The position numbers and the translations under genes were made by a program. A stretch of 64,000 nucleotides of DNA from Roseovarius sp. (lineage in GTDB: Bacteria; Pseudomonadota; Alphaproteobacteria; Rhodobacterales; Rhodobacteraceae): assembly GCA_040222155.1 (NCBI GenBank), contig JAVKDQ010000074.1, forward strand, positions 1,946-65,945. The letters are read 5' to 3'. The notes below the pieces were generated by a model. The model was not told where the DNA came from, made no database searches, and saw only the letters and a program-made list of their open reading frames with translations. Shown piece after piece: positions 9,678 through 35,788 of the stretch. Numbering within the stretch: the stretch's first letter is position 1; each line of letters begins with the position of its first letter.

Positions 9678-10094
9678 TCAGATTTCATTGGGGTTCTGCA
9701 GATCGGTGCAGCGATATGTCCGGCCGCCGACCGTCACGGTCAGATCGGCATGGTAGGCGCCCGGCGTGCCGCCGAGGCTGGTCTGCCCGAGCGTCACGGT
9801 GCGGCCTTCGCCCACGCTGAACTCGCCCGACTGGTCGATCAGCGCCTGCCCGGCCGCGCTCCGCTGGCGGATGGTGAGGGCATATTCCCCGTAGGCTGCC
9901 TGCCGCGCGCTCACCTTGCCGGAGATCTCCACCGTGCCCCCGAGGTCGCGGGTGACGATGGCGCAGCTGAAGCCGGCCTCCGCCGCGCCCGCCCCGGCCT
10001 CATGCGCGCCGCCCTGGGAGACGGCCCCGAGGCCCGCGAGCGCGGCGCTGGCGGCGAGGATGAGAGGGATTGTCTTGCGTGCTGTGGCGGTCAT
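9678..10094 (-). CDS. csgH: CsgH-family curli assembly/chaperone protein
   Basis: AGGAG SD; signal peptide; one Cys near each end of the mature chain (FSCAI, YRCTD); Ig-like beta-rich core with ALIDQSGEF; lies between two curlin genes, as known for alphaproteobacterial csgH. Confidence 0.75.
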   Translation of the reverse strand: MTATARKTIPLILAASAALAGLGAVSQGGAHEAGAGAAEAGFSCAIVTRDLGGTVEISGKVSARQAAYGEYALTIRQRSAAGQALIDQSGEFSVGEGRTVTLGQTSLGGTPGAYHADLTVTVGGRTYRCTDLQNPNEI

Positions 10095-10168: not shown

Positions 10169-10675
10169 TCAGTCCTGCACGATCACGGCCACGTTGCCGC
10201 GCCCGGTCTGGGTGGTGGTGGCGCGGTTGCCGTTCCCGGCCTGGATCACGCCGATCGCGTTGCAATGGCCGTTCTGGGCGACGCTCGCGCCGTTGTTGCG
10301 GCCGAACTGCGCCACGCCCGCCACGTTGCAATGGCCGTTCTGCGAGGTGACGGCGGCATTGCCCCGGCCCTGCTGGCCCACCACGGTGCGGTTGCGGGTG
10401 CCGTTCTGGCCGGTGAAGATGTCGTTGCGGTGGCCCGATTGCGTGGCGGTCACCGAGTTGCGCCGCCCGTCCTGCGTATGGATCTGCAGGTTGCCGCGCC
10501 CGTTCTGGATGATGTCGAGCCGGTTCAGGCGGCCCCCCTGCTGCGCGCCGATGCTGTGGTTGAAGCCCCACTGCTTGATCGAGACGCGGTTGCTGTCGGC
10601 AAGCGCGGTGGAGGCGGCGCCAACGACGATGAGCAGCGAGAGGGCGGCGGTGCGGAACGTGTAGGTCTTGGTCAT
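10169..10675 (-). CDS. curlin-repeat protein, CsgA-like (putative major amyloid subunit)
   Basis: AAGGA SD; signal peptide ending STALA; 13 consecutive 11-aa N-x5-Q-x-G-x-x half-repeats from SNRVSIKQWGF to GNVAVIVQD. Confidence 0.85.
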   Translation of the reverse strand: MTKTYTFRTAALSLLIVVGAASTALADSNRVSIKQWGFNHSIGAQQGGRLNRLDIIQNGRGNLQIHTQDGRRNSVTATQSGHRNDIFTGQNGTRNRTVVGQQGRGNAAVTSQNGHCNVAGVAQFGRNNGASVAQNGHCNAIGVIQAGNGNRATTTQTGRGNVAVIVQD

Positions 10676-10902: not shown

Positions 10903-10929
10903 GTAGGGTGGGTTTCAAACCCACCCTAC
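10903..10929. repeat. REP element GTAGGGTGGGTTTCAAACCCACCCTAC
   Basis: GTAG tetranucleotide plus palindrome; same core at 35725-35779; related to the REPs inside the RAYT gene. Confidence 0.85.
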
Positions 10930-13722: not shown

Positions 13723-14613
13723 ATGAGCACGACCCGCCGCCTCGAACGCCGCCTCGGCGACTGGATGCGCGCCCGCCTCCCCTACTGGGCGGCGGAGCTT
13801 GTCATGTTCCTGCTCAAGATGGGCTGGTCGGCGCTCTTCGGCCTCTCGCTGCTCGTGGCCATCATCGCCACCAAGCTGCTCTGGTCGGAGGACATGCCTC
13901 TGCACCGCTACGACCTTCTGGTCATCATCGCCGTGGGGCTGCAGGTGCTCTTTCTCGCCTTCAAGCTCGAGACATGGGCCGAGGCGCGGGTGATCCTCGT
14001 ATTCCACCTCACCGGCACCGCGATGGAGATCTTCAAGGTGCAGGCCGGCTCATGGAGCTACCCCGAGCCCGGCGTGCTCAAACTCTTTGGAATCCCTCTC
14101 TTTTCCGGCTTCATGTATGCCAGCGTCGGCAGCTTCATGGCCCGCACCATCCGCGTCTTCGACATGCGTTTCGCCCCCTACCCGCCCTACTGGGTGACGC
14201 TGCTGCTCGCGGTCGCGATCTATGTGAATTTCTTTGCCCATCACTTCCTGCCCGACATCCGCGTGGCGCTCTTCGCCGCCACGGTCCTGCTCTTCGCCCG
14301 CACCCGAATCTGGTTCCGCACCGGCGATACGCATTACTGGATGCCCCTGCCGCTCTCGGCGCTCCTTTCCGCGCTCTTCCTCTGGGTGGCGGAAAATATC
14401 GGAACGATGACAGGCACTTGGGTCTATTCCGGGCAGGCCCGGCTCGAGCTCGTGAGCCTCGGCAAGCTCGGCTCGTGGTATCTGCTGCTCTACGTGGCCT
14501 TCGTCACCGTCACGCTCGTGGTGCGCAAGCCGCTCAGCCGGGCACCGCTTGTCAGAGAAGACCTGACCACCACAGGAAGAGCAGCACCCCCGCGCCCAGC
14601 AGAAGCAGGTTGA
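13723..14613 (+). CDS. DUF817-family membrane protein
   Basis: Multiple TM segments; RYDLL, FHLTGTAMEIFK, GSWSYPE, PLFSGFMYASVGS, WVAENIGT, KLGSWYLL motifs. Confidence 0.85.
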   Translation: MSTTRRLERRLGDWMRARLPYWAAELVMFLLKMGWSALFGLSLLVAIIATKLLWSEDMPLHRYDLLVIIAVGLQVLFLAFKLETWAEARVILVFHLTGTAMEIFKVQAGSWSYPEPGVLKLFGIPLFSGFMYASVGSFMARTIRVFDMRFAPYPPYWVTLLLAVAIYVNFFAHHFLPDIRVALFAATVLLFARTRIWFRTGDTHYWMPLPLSALLSALFLWVAENIGTMTGTWVYSGQARLELVSLGKLGSWYLLLYVAFVTVTLVVRKPLSRAPLVREDLTTTGRAAPPRPAEAG

Positions 14614-14926
14614 AGACCAGCGCACCGGCGGTTCCGAGGAACGCGTTGAGCCTTTCTTCCTTGCGGTTCACCTTCTTCAGATGCCCCTCCAGCGTGGCGA
14701 AGGCCTCCTCGAGCCGCGCCGCATCGGTGAACCGCGCGAGCTTCGGATGGTCGATATGCCGCCCCGCCTCCACGATCTCGCGGCCCGCGCGGCGCGCCTT
14801 CGGCGGCAGCCGTCGCCCGGCCCTGCGGAGCCGTTTCTCCAGCGTCCGTCCCCGCACGCCAAGCCGCGCCTGCAGCGTCTCGCTCAGCGCCTGCACCCTT
14901 GCGTGATACGTGGCCGGTCCGGTCAT
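14552..14926 (-). CDS. conserved hypothetical protein with C-terminal TM helix
   Basis: RLGVRGRTL...AGRRLP motif and hydrophobic C-terminus; host-like codon usage. Confidence 0.65.
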   Translation of the reverse strand: MTGPATYHARVQALSETLQARLGVRGRTLEKRLRRAGRRLPPKARRAGREIVEAGRHIDHPKLARFTDAARLEEAFATLEGHLKKVNRKEERLNAFLGTAGALVFNLLLLGAGVLLFLWWSGLL

Positions 14927-15016
14927 GCAATGTCTCCCGGCGGCAAGCTTTAGCCCGGCCCGCCGCGAAGCTCAACAGGGCTGGCCTCGCGCCCGAGGCC
15001 CGGCTATCAACGGCCC

Positions 15017-15775
15017 ATGCTGAACGTGATCGAACATGGGATCCCCACCGAGGCCCCGACCCTTCTCATCGCCCATGGTCTCTATGGCTCGGGCCGCAAC
15101 TGGGGTGTCATCGCCAAGCGCCTCTCCGATGCCCGGCAGGTGCTCGCCGTCGACATGCGCAACCACGGCCGCAGCCCCTGGGAGAAGAGCCACGCCTACC
15201 CCGATCTCGCCGCCGATCTCGCGGAGGTGATCGAGGCGCATGGCGGGCCGATGGATGTGCTCGGCCATTCGATGGGTGGCAAGGCCGCCATGGTGCTGGC
15301 GCTCACACGGCCCGAGCTCGTCAACCGCCTGATCGTCGCCGATATCGCGCCGGTGCCCTATTCCCATGACCAGAGCCAGCACATCGCGGCGATGCGGCGG
15401 CTCGACCTCTCGAAGATCGAACGGCGCTCGGACGCGCAGGAAATGCTCGCCGAGCATGTAGAAGACCCAACCCTGCAGAGCTTCTTCCTGCAATCGCTCG
15501 ACGTGAAGGAAGGGCGCTGGCTTCTGAACCTCGACGTTCTCGAAGCCGAGATGCCCAGGATCATCGGTTTCCCGCGGATGGAAGGCGCTTTCGAGGGGGA
15601 TGCGCTCTTTCTCTCCGGGGCCGGGTCGGATTACGTAAGGCGCGAAGATCGCCCTGAAATCAAAAGGCTTTTTCCGAGGGCCCGCTTCGCCAAGATCCCC
15701 GGCGCGGGGCATTGGCTGCACGCGGAGAAGCCGCGCGAATTCGAGGCGGCGGTGCGCGGCTGGTTGTCTGGCTAG
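15017..15775 (+). CDS. alpha/beta hydrolase (YbfF/ABHD11-like esterase)
   Basis: AHGLYGSGRNW, DMRNHGRS, GHSMGGK nucleophile, GAGHWLHAEKP. Confidence 0.92.
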   Translation: MLNVIEHGIPTEAPTLLIAHGLYGSGRNWGVIAKRLSDARQVLAVDMRNHGRSPWEKSHAYPDLAADLAEVIEAHGGPMDVLGHSMGGKAAMVLALTRPELVNRLIVADIAPVPYSHDQSQHIAAMRRLDLSKIERRSDAQEMLAEHVEDPTLQSFFLQSLDVKEGRWLLNLDVLEAEMPRIIGFPRMEGAFEGDALFLSGAGSDYVRREDRPEIKRLFPRARFAKIPGAGHWLHAEKPREFEAAVRGWLSG

Positions 15776-16700
15776 CCCGGGTCCCGGCCCTGTTACGGGT
15801 GACGGCGCGCCCCGCGCCGCCACCCCGCGGCCTTGCTCCGGCCCGGCGCGTAGCCCTTCCGGGATCATGCCCGGTACGCCGGCCTTTTTCCCCAAGACCG
15901 CGACAGAAGACGCCGCCCCGAACCTTCACCCCATAATCATTCCGGTTCGGGCGCCGGGCGGGGTGTCCATCGACCACCCGGCGGCAACGTCTGCCCGGCA
16001 CTGTTGCAAGGCAAGCCACCGCGCGCCTTGATTTCGATCAGGTCGCCTCACGAATGCCCATACCTCGGGCAGGCTGGGCGAATTTGCCATAGGTCTGGGC
16101 GAATTCCGCAAATCCAACGCAAGATCTAGTTGAACGGTGCGCGGCCCGCGTGTAGGAAAGCGGCACAGGTGCAGATAGACGCGGTCGCATTCCTGACGGC
16201 GGGGCTCGCAATACCGGCAAGATCCAGGTGGCGGGCCCCGCTTCGTCTGGAGAGAAATCCATTGAAGAACCCCATAAAATGGGGAAGGCGCCAGGTGCTC
16301 AGACGCGGTCCTCGCATTGCGGCCGAAGCCACTCCCCTGACGCCTTGACCGAACGAACCGCCCCTGGGGGCTCCTCGTGCAGCCTGCCGCGAACCTTTGA
16401 CAGCCCGGGCATGTTTCGCTTCCGCCGGCCTCTGGAGGCCTGCTTCCGCGCCCCGCCTCAACCTGCGTCACTGGCCCGGTGATAGCGCCGCGAAGGCTCT
16501 TTCTCCGACCGGCCAGCCACACTCCCTCGCTCTTCGCTTCCAGCTTCTCCACGTGAAGTGGCGTCGCCTTGACGTGTCGCTCGGGCTTGGGCCTCGGCGC
16601 CGGTTTGGTCTCTTTCGATCTCGCCCCGGTAATAAAACTGTTACGTGGGCCGGTGAGTCGCGCAAGAAAATAGCACTGCAGCATTGAAAATAGCTGTGGA

Positions 16701-16716
16701 TTAAACGGTTGATAAC
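16701..16716. promoter_or_regulatory. CtrA-like box TTAA-N7-ATAAC
   Basis: One mismatch to TTAA-N7-TTAAC, inside an AT-rich patch (16630-16760) that also carries a GAAAATAGC direct repeat. Confidence 0.45.
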
Positions 16717-16898
16717 TCTTCGAAAATTCTGGGGATACCTGCCGGAAAATCCTGTAATTCTGCCAGCTTGCGAGAACTATCGCGGCAGCGTCTTCGCCCC
16801 CGCCGACGATCGGCGCTTTTCTGCGCCTGCAAACGCGTTCAGGCGGCTTTCGAGGGTTTTTCACCGCACATCCGCCATCCTTCCGGCGGTTGAAACCC

Positions 16899-17075
16899 TC
16901 AGTCGCGCATCCTCCGCGCCACCGCCCAGGACAGGGGGAAGGCCACGGCGAACCCCACGACAACGGCAATCAGAAAGGCGCCGGGCGTATCCTGCCCCAA
17001 GATGAGCGCAACGATCACCGCACTACCGGCAAGGGTGGACCCGATGAAGAGATGCAGAACGAATATGAGCCACAT
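16899..17075 (-). CDS. small two-TM membrane protein
   Basis: MWLIFVLHLFIGSTLAGSAVIVALILG...GFAVAFPLSWAVARRMRD; I recall this as a conserved Rhodobacterales small-protein pattern. Confidence 0.7.
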   Translation of the reverse strand: MWLIFVLHLFIGSTLAGSAVIVALILGQDTPGAFLIAVVVGFAVAFPLSWAVARRMRD

Positions 17076-17237
17076 GGCAGGCCTCCGGTGCACGCGTCTT
17101 TGCCTCTGCGCAACCTGTTACCGCAGAGCGGCGCGGCGCGGCTTGATCTGGGTCAGCGGAGGGCAATTCGGCGGGCACCGTCTCATGATCCTTTCGGATT
17201 TAACCCCGCCTTTACCATCCTGTCGTCAGAATGGGTC

Positions 17238-17798
17238 ATGGCACGATATCTCAGGCCCCGGGTCGCCGGGGCAACCATCTTCTTCTCCGTCCATCTCGCC
17301 CGGCGCGGGTCGACCCTGCTCACCGACGAGATCGGCGCATTGCGCGCCGCTGTCCGGCAAACGCGGGCGGAGCGGCCTTTCGAGATCGACGCCTGGGTGG
17401 TCCTGCCGGATCATCTTCATGCCCTCTGGTCCCTGCCGGAGGGCGATGCGGATTACGGCACGCGATGGGGTGCGATCACGGCCCGCTTCACGCGAAGCCT
17501 GCGCGACCGATGTAGGGTGGGGTACAACCCCACCCTCGCCAAGGCCGAAGGGCACACGGTGGGGTGGAACCCCACCCTACACCGCTCGGCGAGCAAGGTC
17601 GCGAAAGGCGACGCGGGGATATGGCAAAGGCGGTTCTGGGAGCACCACATCAGAGACGAGGCGGATTACCGCGCGCACCTGCGGCATTGCTGGGAGAACC
17701 CGGTGAAACATGGGCTCGTCAAACGGCCGGAGGAGTGGCTCTATTCCAGCGTGCACCGCGATGCGCTCCTCGCGCGGGAGAGGGAACCGGCCGAGTGA
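17238..17798 (+). mobile_element. REP-associated tyrosine transposase (RAYT, IS200/Y1 HUH family), probably catalytically impaired
   Basis: MARYLRP...FFSV, PFEIDAWVVLPDHLHALW (HUH), IWQRRFWEHHIRD, NPVKHGLV, WLYSSVHRD align with E. coli TnpA-REP; the Tyr115-equivalent is His (CAT at 17685-17687). Confidence 0.9.
17512..17580. repeat. inverted REP doublet (REPIN) inside the RAYT CDS
   Basis: GTAGGGTGGGGTACAACCCCACC at 17512 and GGTGGGGTGGAACCCCACCCTAC ending at 17580; span 69 bp = 23 codons. Confidence 0.8.
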
Positions 17799-17846
17799 TA
17801 CTCCCTGGAAAGGCCGGGCAAGCCCCACCTCACAAGGCGTCTCGCC

Positions 17847-19646
17847 CTAGTTGTCCATCTTCAAGGCCGAGATGAAGGCTTCCTGCGGGATCTCCACCTT
17901 GCCGAACTGGCGCATCTTCTTCTTGCCCGCCTTCTGCTTCTCGAGCAGCTTGCGCTTCCGTGTCGCGTCGCCGCCATAGCATTTCGCTGTCACGTCCTTG
18001 CGCAGCGCGGAGAGCGTCTCCCGCGCGATCACCTTGCCGCCGATCGCCGCCTGGATCGGGATCTTGAACATGTGGCGCGGGATCAGATCCTTCAGCTTTT
18101 CGCACATCGCCCGCCCACGCATCTCGGCGCGGTCGCGATGGACCATCATCGAAAGCGCGTCCACGGGCTCGTCATTCACGAGGATCTGCATCTTCACAAG
18201 GTTGTCGGCCCGGTAGCCCTCGAGCTGGTAGTCAAAGCTTGCATAGCCCTTGGTGACGGATTTCAGCCGGTCGTAGAAATCGAACACCACCTCGTTGAGC
18301 GGCAGATCGTACACCGCCATGGCCCGCCCGCCCACATAGGTGAGATCGAGCTGGATGCCGCGCCGATCCTGGCAGAGTTTGAGCACATCGCCGAGAAACT
18401 CATCCGGCACGAGGATGGTGGCCTTGATCCGCGGCTCCTCCACGTGATCCACGTAGGTGAGGTCGGGCATGTCGGCGGGGTTGTGCAGATCGCGCTTGAC
18501 ACCGTCCTTCATGTAGATGTGGTAGATCACCGAGGGCGCGGTGGTGATGAGCTCGATATCGTATTCCCGCTCGATCCGGTCGCGCACCACTTCGAGATGA
18601 AGCAGGCCCAGAAAGCCACAGCGGAAGCCGAACCCCAGCGCTGCGGAGCTTTCCATCTCGTAGGTGAAGGAGGCATCGTTGAGCGCCAGTTTCTCGATGG
18701 CATCGCGCAGGTCTTCGAACTCGGCACTGTCGACAGGAAACAGCCCGCAGAAGACCACCGGGATGGAGGGCTTGAATCCGGGCAGCGCCTTCGCGCAGGG
18801 GCGCTTCTCATGGGTGATCGTATCGCCGACCTTGGTGTCGCGCACCTGTTTGATCGACGCGGTGATGAAGCCGATCTCGCCGGGCCCGAGTTCATCCACC
18901 ACCGTCATCTCGGGGCGGAAGACACCGATCCGGTCGATATTGTAGGTGGCGCCCGTCTGCATCATGCGGATGCGGTCGCCCTTCTTCATAACGCCGTCCA
19001 TGATGCGTACGAGCACCACGACGCCGAGATAGAGGTCATATTTGCTGTCCACCAGCATCGCCTTGAGCGGTGCGTTGGCATCGCCCTTGGGGGCGGGCAG
19101 GTGGGCAATGATCGCTTCGAGCACTTCGCGGATGCCCTGCCCCGTCTTCGCGGAAACCGGGATCGCGCCGGAGGCATCGATGCCGATCACCTCTTCGATC
19201 TGCTCGGCCACGCGGCTCACATCAGAGGCGGGAAGGTCGATCTTGTTGAGCACCGGGATGAGCTCGTGATCGGCGTCGATCGCCTGGTAGACATTGGCGA
19301 GGGTCTGCGCCTCGACCCCTTGCGTGCTGTCAACCACCAGGAGCGAGCCCTCGACCGCGCGCATGGAGCGCGAAACCTCGTAGGCAAAGTCCACATGGCC
19401 GGGAGTGTCGATGAGGTTGAGCACATATTGCTCGCCATCCTCGGCGGTGTAGACGATCCGCACCGTGTTCGCCTTGATCGTGATGCCGCGCTCGCGCTCG
19501 ATATCCATCGAGTCGAGCAACTGCTCCTTCATGTCCCGCTCGGCAACCGTGTCCGTCATCTGGATCAGCCGGTCGGCCAAGGTGGATTTGCCGTGGTCGA
19601 TATGGGCCACGATCGAGAAATTGCGGATATGCGAGAGCGGTGTCAT
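17847..19646 (-). CDS. lepA: elongation factor 4
   Basis: [44 protein letters not shown] motifs. Confidence 0.98.
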
Positions 19647-19784
19647 GACGTTGGGATATGAGGCGGAATTGGGGGGGCGTCAAGGAGAGTCGAGCGGGGG
19701 CTGGCCGGGCGGCGCAAAGGGCAGACCGAACGGCGCGTTCTATGCTATGCTGCCCGCAGAGACTCGCGCAGGGGAGGGACTGCC

Positions 19785-20063
19785 ATGCAGGAGCACAAAT
19801 CCGTTCAGGCCCGGGTACAGGGCCGCGTTCAGGGGGTATCCTTCCGCGCCTGGACGCGGCTCGAAGCGCAGGTGCGCGAACTGTCGGGCTGGGTCAAGAA
19901 CGAAGAGGATGGCTCGGTCACGGCGCTTCTTGCCGGTCGCGAGGCAGCCGTGGACGAAATGCTGAAAGAACTGCGCCACGGCCCTCCCGCGGCGGTGGTG
20001 CGCGACCTGCAGATCGAGGCGGCCGGCTGGCCCGAGAGTGAAGGCTTCCACATCCTGCGCTGA
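19785..20063 (+). CDS. acyP: acylphosphatase
   Basis: GRVQGVSFR, GWVKNEEDGSV, HGPPAAVV motifs. Confidence 0.92.
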   Translation: MQEHKSVQARVQGRVQGVSFRAWTRLEAQVRELSGWVKNEEDGSVTALLAGREAAVDEMLKELRHGPPAAVVRDLQIEAAGWPESEGFHILR

Positions 20064-35687: not shown

Positions 35688-35724
35688 GGATCGGCTGCGC
35701 TTTCAGGTTCGATCAGGCTGGCAA

Positions 35725-35779
35725 GGTGGGTTTGAAACCCACCCTACAGGCGGTTCGTAGGGTGGGTTTCAAACCCACC
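35725..35779. repeat. REP doublet inside the cox operon (GTAG ends facing inward)
   Basis: GGTGGGTTTGAAACCCACCCTAC (35725-35747) and GTAGGGTGGGTTTCAAACCCACC (35757-35779). Confidence 0.85.
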
Positions 35780-35788
35780 CACAGGGCG

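Follow-up and report, generated by a model that had tools for sequence, protein, structure and literature searches.

The window, as we call the whole 64-kb stretch (64,000 nucleotides) of a Roseovarius sp. contig analysed here, contains a gene for a homolog of the REP-associated tyrosine transposases (RAYTs, TnpA-REP), which faces lepA. RAYTs are the enzymes believed to spread short palindromic repeats (REPs) through bacterial genomes. The features on which the analysis draws are given below with their positions, strand and the evidence that identified them.

17238..17798, + strand: RAYT (TnpA-REP) homolog, 186 aa, intact open reading frame (ORF and sequence, NF047646, 4ER8, AlphaFold/Foldseek)
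17412..17420, + strand: HUH motif H59-L60-H61, intact (sequence; aligned under H59/M60/H61 of 4ER8)
17478..17480, + strand: codon 81, ACG (Thr) in place of the family's Lys (K81 of E. coli, helix alphaC; K in 80/80 and 166/168 sequences)
17512..17580, no strand: intragenic REPIN (repeat/pattern scans, folding z-scores, rare codons, compensatory changes)
17512-17536, GTAG tag on the + strand: left REP of the REPIN, GTAGGGTGGGGTACAACCCCACCCT (repeat/pattern scans)
17557-17580, GTAG tag on the − strand: right REP of the REPIN, CGGTGGGGTGGAACCCCACCCTAC (repeat/pattern scans)
17685..17687, + strand: codon 150, CAT (His), aligned with catalytic Y115 of E. coli (4ER8 alignment, multiple alignments)
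17697..17711, + strand: N154...H158 (NPVKH), metal ligands of helix alphaD, intact (under E. coli N119/H123)
17847..19646, − strand: lepA (EF4), convergent neighbour of the RAYT gene (ORF translation)
10903..10929, no strand: extragenic REP forming a perfect palindrome of 27 nt with a tag at each end, GTAGGGTGGGTTTCAAACCCACCCTAC (repeat/pattern scans)
35724..35782, no strand: extragenic pair of REPs from that family, their GTAG heads facing each other (35724-35747 and 35757-35782; repeat/pattern scans)

The listed ORF opens at 16890, and homology supports the ATG at 17238 ('MARYLRPRV...') as the start of the RAYT, with the stop codon at 17796-17798. The predicted protein matched the NCBIfam model NF047646 REP_Tyr_transpos ('REP-associated tyrosine transposase') with 157.9 bits over profile positions 1-146 of 146, the curated cut-off being 80 bits, and PDB entry 4ER8 (E. 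coli TnpA-REP, YafM) with an E of 2.5e-39; a search against Pfam-A at E 0.01 returned zero families. The AlphaFold model, built with 73 homologs as input, had a mean pLDDT of 84.1, and its best Foldseek match was again 4ER8 (E 2e-17, TM 0.71/0.80), followed by the TnpAs of IS200/IS605. The metal ligands of E. coli TnpA-REP are H59/H61 of the HUH motif, N119, H123 and E161 (Messing et al., PMC3479197). The HUH motif and the alphaD pair are intact in the window protein, with N154 encoded at 17697-17699 and H158 at 17709-17711, and for E161 no alignment was obtained in the C-terminal tail. The residues that contact GTAG, Q130 and W134, are intact as well. Taking as family-invariant the 37 positions that are ≥95% conserved in a broad set of RAYTs (among the matches listed), we found 34 of them kept in the window RAYT, the exceptions being Y150H, K81T and the conservative T17S.

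Y115 is the catalytic tyrosine of E. coli TnpA-REP (Messing et al., PMC3479197), and Y1 HUH enzymes cleave through a 5′-phosphotyrosine intermediate (PMC3479197, PMC3333891). In the HMMER alignment to 4ER8, the window sequence DYRAHLRHCWENPVKHG lies against E. coli DYRHHVDYIYINPVKHG with H150 under Y115, and the catalytic Tyr of alphaD, found in a Y---NP context, is absent from the window RAYT, where the context reads RHCWENP. The sequence-only reading had placed a CAT (His) codon at the catalytic position, which both the 4ER8 and the multiple alignments bear out, the base itself being taken from the assembly; the Thr in place of a conserved Lys, with HUH motif and ORF intact, was also read correctly. 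With the Y115F change, E. coli TnpA-REP yields neither cleavage nor strand-transfer products (PMC8266576), and Y132F inactivates ISDra2, yet the active site is still assembled on DNA (PMC3479197). Because cutting by Y1 HUH enzymes needs the 5′-phosphotyrosine link, cleavage and transfer of REP/REPIN DNA have very probably been lost. The missing nucleophile and the analogy with inactive Y115F thus make loss of both transposase and nuclease activity a strong inference, and the earlier term 'nuclease-dead' appears soundly chosen. Lacking the catalytic Tyr, the window protein is, as judged from its sequence, a RAYT homolog by descent that does not qualify as a tyrosine transposase by function.

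To place this substitution in the family, two sets of homologs were compared. The broad set, retrieved through the conserved WQRRFWEH pattern, comprised 80 RAYT genes from species-representative genomes of alpha-, beta- and gammaproteobacteria with 45-62% identity among the matches listed, so that relatives in it reach at most 62% identity among those matches; the clade set comprised 168 cluster representatives (at 90% identity) from the roseobacter group and other Rhodobacterales, with 55-79% identity. At the Tyr position the broad set showed Y 77, F 2 and I 1 (80 genes, among the matches listed), and the 168 clade representatives showed Y 154, H 7, A 2 and one each of C, G, K, R and Q. The frequency of His among homologs, a point raised by the sequence-only reading, is therefore low (0/80 broad loci listed and 7/168 in the clade), and His is at the same time the commonest replacement, accounting for 7 of the 14 Tyr-less clade representatives. 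Each HUH His was present in 167/168 clade representatives, and the Tyr position deviated in 13/167 compared with 1/167 for each HUH His. Among the 37 invariant positions, frequent radical replacements were found at the Tyr position only, whereas the other variable ones had conservative swaps, such as L/M, E/D, T/S and F/Y. Every Tyr-less sequence (14/168) had a Tyr-bearing sequence as its nearest one, and the Tyr losses are on this ground independent of one another; the same observation led us to reject a deep His clade with the window RAYT among its members.

Selection was then estimated within the Tyr-less lineages, in whose 90% clusters the replacement was common to all members and all ORFs were intact.

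P0051 cluster (His): dN/dS 0.20-0.32 at dS 0.10-0.20; p(neutral) 0.027 to 1e-4; neighbour genes 0-0.13
P0090/P0122 (His): dN/dS 0.11 at dS 0.22; p(neutral) about 1e-11
P0090 or P0122 (His) versus P0137 (Arg, 86% identical): dN/dS 0.19-0.21 at dS 0.42-0.46; p(neutral) about 1e-11

The P0051-lineage genes lie at loci L086, L088 and L089, and P0090, P0122 and P0137 are intact 219-aa ORFs (L095/L096 10001-10660, L097 300-959). Around the P0090-lineage gene, lepA and an AI-2E transporter gene had dN/dS of about 0.01 or less, and an 89-aa ORF had 0.31; pairs of Tyr-bearing RAYTs gave 0.06-0.13, at larger divergence. Functional RAYTs were reported to have dN/dS of 0.2-0.4, and 0.74 when broken copies were included (Bertels and Rainey, bioRxiv 10.1101/2021.07.10.451892). 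The Tyr-less values fall within the range of functional RAYTs, a comparison that carries survivorship bias because the database consists of intact predicted proteins only. The HUH motif and metal ligands were conserved in these Tyr-less lineages, alphaD of the P0051 lineage (QREMQVLINHCHANP) is devoid of Tyr, and the His variant P0010 was seen in different samples, on at least 5 contigs in all. Tyr-less RAYTs can thus be maintained by selection. Two further lineages were set aside as evidence on selection: the two P0010 copies are identical in DNA, and the P0113 copies have an identical core with differences confined to the C-terminal tail. The P0113 lineage (L091-L094) departs further from the family, its HUH being QMH, its Tyr Lys and its NPVKHG SPVASG, in a full-length ORF found in several samples. 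For the window RAYT itself, whose closest relative has 78% identity, dS would be saturated, and a relative-rate comparison was therefore used in place of dN/dS; its branch was about 1.3-1.5 times as long as those of its neighbours.

The second substitution concerns the DNA-binding surface. [quoted passage not shown] Lys occupied this position in 80/80 of the broad-family loci among the matches listed and in 166 of the 168 clade representatives, the other 2 having Thr; outside the window, K81T was seen among these representatives only in P0055, which has further odd substitutions. Lys81Thr may weaken or retune hairpin binding. As far as the sequence can tell, Thr81 argues against intact REP binding and would fit relaxed constraint better than preserved binding.

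Within the RAYT reading frame itself, repeat and pattern scans revealed two REPs, which the sequence-only reading had overlooked. The window protein has a 36-aa insertion after alphaC (aa 88-123) that E. coli lacks, and two GTAG-tagged REP hairpins, inverted relative to each other, make up most of its DNA and encode a loop (RVGYNPT...VGWNPTL) of low pLDDT in the AlphaFold model. The arms at 17504-17534 and 17558-17588 are 87% complementary, and an 85-nt stretch folds as a single long hairpin with z-scores of −4.8 as DNA and −5.6 as RNA; two REPs of the same family thus stand inverted across a short spacer and can fold as one hairpin, as in a REPIN. The codons that form the tags are rare in the window genome (AGG, 3.3% of Arg; CTA, 1.4% of Leu; GGG, 16% of Gly) and are unchanged across genera whose flanking synonymous sites differ. 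A GTAG...CTAC REPIN also lies within the RAYT frame at L081, L083 and L085 (10275-10343) and at L001, L002, L004, L006, L011, L014 and L017. In other Rhodobacterales RAYTs the loop holds REPINs that differ in sequence (GTAGGGCGGGG..., GTAGGTCGGGG..., GTAGGGCGGGC...), and the stem changes across relatives are compensatory (TA to CG, GC to TA, AT or CG). These lineage-specific REPINs usually have matching REPs just outside the gene. Judged by the rare codons and the compensatory stem changes across genera, the intragenic REPIN is held at the DNA level. It is intact in the window RAYT, P0010 and P0090, and in the P0051 lineage the left tag has changed from GTAG to GTAA, with a stem mismatch in 2/3 copies. 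Having the REPIN within the RAYT gene physically links enzyme and substrate, which suggests autoregulation or a protected master copy. As a separate observation, the RAYT ORF of Pararhodobacter L095 continues through the REP of its 3′ flank (10632-10660), thereby gains another 'VGWNPTL' peptide, and shares 29 nt with the end of lepA.

Outside the gene, five GTAGGGTGGG tags at three loci were found in the window, in addition to the two inside, and a related hairpin pattern matched 5 times in the window, where shuffled sequences gave an expectation of 0.06. The window RAYT is thus associated with GTAG-tagged REP hairpins of one family. The near-identical extragenic REPs of the sequence-only reading do exist in the sense that REPs of this family lie outside the gene, but they amount to three loci in 64 kb and are similar, none of them identical, to the intragenic pair. 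Directly beside the window RAYT (17799-17846 and 17100-17237) no REP was found, and relatives with a REP within about 100 nt of the RAYT gene include L081, L083, L085, L001, L004, L014 and L017. At 17823-17834, CCCCACCTCACA may be the decayed remains of half a REP.

The chromosomal setting of the gene is also shared. The adjacency of RAYT and lepA recurs in P0010 (a Tateyamaria-like lineage) and P0090 (Pararhodobacter), which suggests vertical inheritance, and RAYTs of P0003 and of the P0051 lineage have a YkuD gene on one side and an ABC-F gene on the other, the latter adjoined by P0113 as well. The clade RAYTs accordingly occupy at least two conserved positions, convergent with lepA (the window, L083, L084, L095, L096) or with an ABC-F gene (L081, L088, L089, L091), the YkuD gene standing upstream in most loci of the second kind. 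No second RAYT was found within the 64-kb window, and the conserved positions, as read from these sequences, fit single-copy, vertically inherited RAYTs.

The sequence-only reading had left it between a decaying gene and one kept as a REP-binding protein, and the results lend indirect support to the latter. We tentatively prefer it, as a reading whose probability falls a little short of even: the window RAYT would be the genome's vertically inherited TnpA-REP ortholog, adjoining lepA, in which one T-to-C transition would have turned the nucleophilic Tyr of alphaD into His. The product is predicted to be a pseudo-enzyme that has retained its fold and its ability to bind REP hairpins with a GTAG tag, among them the REPIN of its own gene or transcript, and that may serve, by analogy, a cleavage-free role in REP-site occupancy or regulation, or in autoregulation. 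A binding-competent pseudo-enzyme seems the most likely product because the fold, the HUH motif, the other metal ligands and Q130/W134 are intact, and the cleavage-free role is proposed because other Tyr-less RAYTs of the clade are under purifying selection. The 34/37 invariant residues, the modest branch length and the perfect REPIN of the window copy speak for its retention, whereas Thr81 in the DNA-binding helix and the lack of an adjacent REP point to relaxed constraint. The loss of Tyr looks recent, since neither the intragenic REPIN nor the remainder of the protein shows damage. An early-stage pseudogene is a substantial though lesser possibility: a recent missense change of the nucleophile together with K81T would have switched off the RAYT and left an intact ORF that drifts and will decay with the REP population. 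Two changes at near-invariant functional residues, one catalytic and one in the DNA-binding helix, a modestly longer branch, and the absence of flanking REPs, with a possible decayed half-REP at 17823-17834 where the adjacent REPs of relatives are intact, all favour such decay; loss of RAYT function moreover recurs, as in Neisseria frameshifts and RAYT-less E. coli (bioRxiv 10.1101/2021.07.10.451892), and its elimination is an outcome described by models of REPIN-RAYT conflict. The gene nevertheless has zero frameshifts or stops, its sole deviation at an invariant position beyond Y150H and K81T is the conservative T17S, its REPIN is intact, and the other Tyr-less lineages have stayed under purifying selection instead of decaying.

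That the protein still cuts DNA, with His150 as a nucleophile (phosphohistidine) or as the general base for metal-activated water in what would be a plain nuclease, or with another Tyr such as Y144, is improbable. His is the commonest replacement in the clade (7/14), and the conservation of the HUH motif and metal ligands in Tyr-less lineages is what would be expected if the metal site were used; however, TAY to CAY is one of two single transitions from Tyr, and the excess of His may be mutational. Arg replaces His in P0137, a member of a constrained Tyr-less clade; the residue that took the place of Tyr is thus not itself conserved, which argues against catalysis by His. We know of no HUH enzyme with a His nucleophile. 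Y144, the tyrosine of 'DY', is an unlikely substitute because it varies among Tyr-bearing relatives (F, W, L, M) and the constrained P0051 lineage lacks any Tyr in alphaD. A sequencing or assembly error at 17685, with TAT as the true codon, is very improbable. Among the indexed public runs queried with the RAYT gene alone, none carries the gene of the window organism; a 10-kb query found two metagenome runs, which hold relatives only and read T (Tyr) at 17685. These T reads, the one observation that favours an error, come from other organisms of 80-95% identity. One of the metagenomes also holds an organism about 98% identical, at about 2.5x depth, whose contigs end at 17232, before the gene, and two metagenome pattern scans for the window's own codons gave zero matches. 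K81T, a second rare substitution in the same gene, and the natural occurrence of Y-to-H in several independent lineages and samples speak against an error, and a random consensus error on exactly that base would be very unlikely.

The window RAYT can be set against known systems. E. coli TnpA-REP (4ER8) and the window RAYT share 40% identity over the core, a TM of 0.80, the HUH motif, the N/H ligands, the alphaC helix and the GTAG-sequestering Q and W, and both are associated with GTAG-tagged REP hairpins; in contrast to E. coli, the window has His for Y115, Thr for K81 and the 36-aa REPIN-encoded loop after alphaC, and is without directly flanking REP/BIME arrays. The RAYTs of Pseudomonas and Enterobacteria REPINs (Bertels and Rainey) are likewise single copy (for the window, in the available sequence), stand at a conserved position, belong to systems with paired inverted REPs and have a similar dN/dS range, but theirs have flanking REPINs and the Tyr, whereas the window has its REPIN inside the ORF and no Tyr. 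As in frameshift alleles of N. gonorrhoeae and in RAYT-less E. coli, RAYT catalytic function would have been lost within a lineage; there the loss came by frameshift or deletion, followed by REPIN decay, while in the window it is a missense change in an intact ORF, and purifying selection continues in its sister Tyr-less cases. In the engineered TnpA-REP Y115F and ISDra2 Y132F, likewise, the nucleophile is removed and the HUH metal site is intact. Mutants of this type are cleavage-inactive and still assemble on their DNA (PMC3479197, PMC8266576), the window differing in being a natural allele with His rather than Phe.

REP dimers with GTAG tags inside genes are known: Di Nocera et al. 2013 (PMC3733652) describe them as lying in frame and adding 20-30 residues to otherwise normal proteins, and the passages searched present RAYT genes as flanked by REPs or TIRs and not as containing them. 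In contrast to those dimers, the host gene in the window is the RAYT itself, and the insert is conserved across genera with compensatory changes. A literature search outside subscription journals found neither a description of REPs within RAYT genes nor a paper on RAYTs in Rhodobacterales or the Roseobacter group. Of the two findings, the in-frame REPIN may be more novel than the loss of Tyr. That the two belong together, as a Rhodobacterales form of the RAYT-REPIN system in which a cognate in-frame REPIN is kept as a hairpin and Tyr is lost recurrently under purifying selection, seems doubtful at present. If it holds, the in-frame REPIN, which changes with the REP family of its lineage, could serve as a master copy or an autoregulatory site, RAYTs would have a selectable role free of cleavage, and the His150 protein would be a fresh instance of a second domestication step. 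The benefit of RAYTs and REPINs to the cell, and the persistence of single-copy RAYTs over millions of years, are a standing question. Recurrent Tyr loss together with constraint suggests, from comparison of sequences, that RAYTs have a role for which DNA need not be cut, and natural Tyr-less RAYTs under purifying selection would mean that part of the value of a RAYT is independent of moving REPs. For annotation, activity should not be taken for granted in genes labelled 'REP-associated tyrosine transposase', as about 8% of the clade is without Tyr.

Some minor observations concern the region upstream of the RAYT gene. No convincing ORF was found at 15900-16900, a segment of about 1 kb upstream of a small membrane-protein ORF (16899-17093, − strand), and Rfam, tRNA and Pfam scans around 14000-20000, this segment included, gave nothing relevant. 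A 34-nt contig of a related metagenome, of unusually high depth, maps to 16285-16317. Closer to the gene, three genera (L081, L083 and L085, about 9955-9990) share a short motif ATTAACCA(T), placed 15-45 nt before the start of the RAYT, which may be a promoter or operator element; at the matching site of the window, about 17205-17226, TTTAACC...TTTACCATCC is found.
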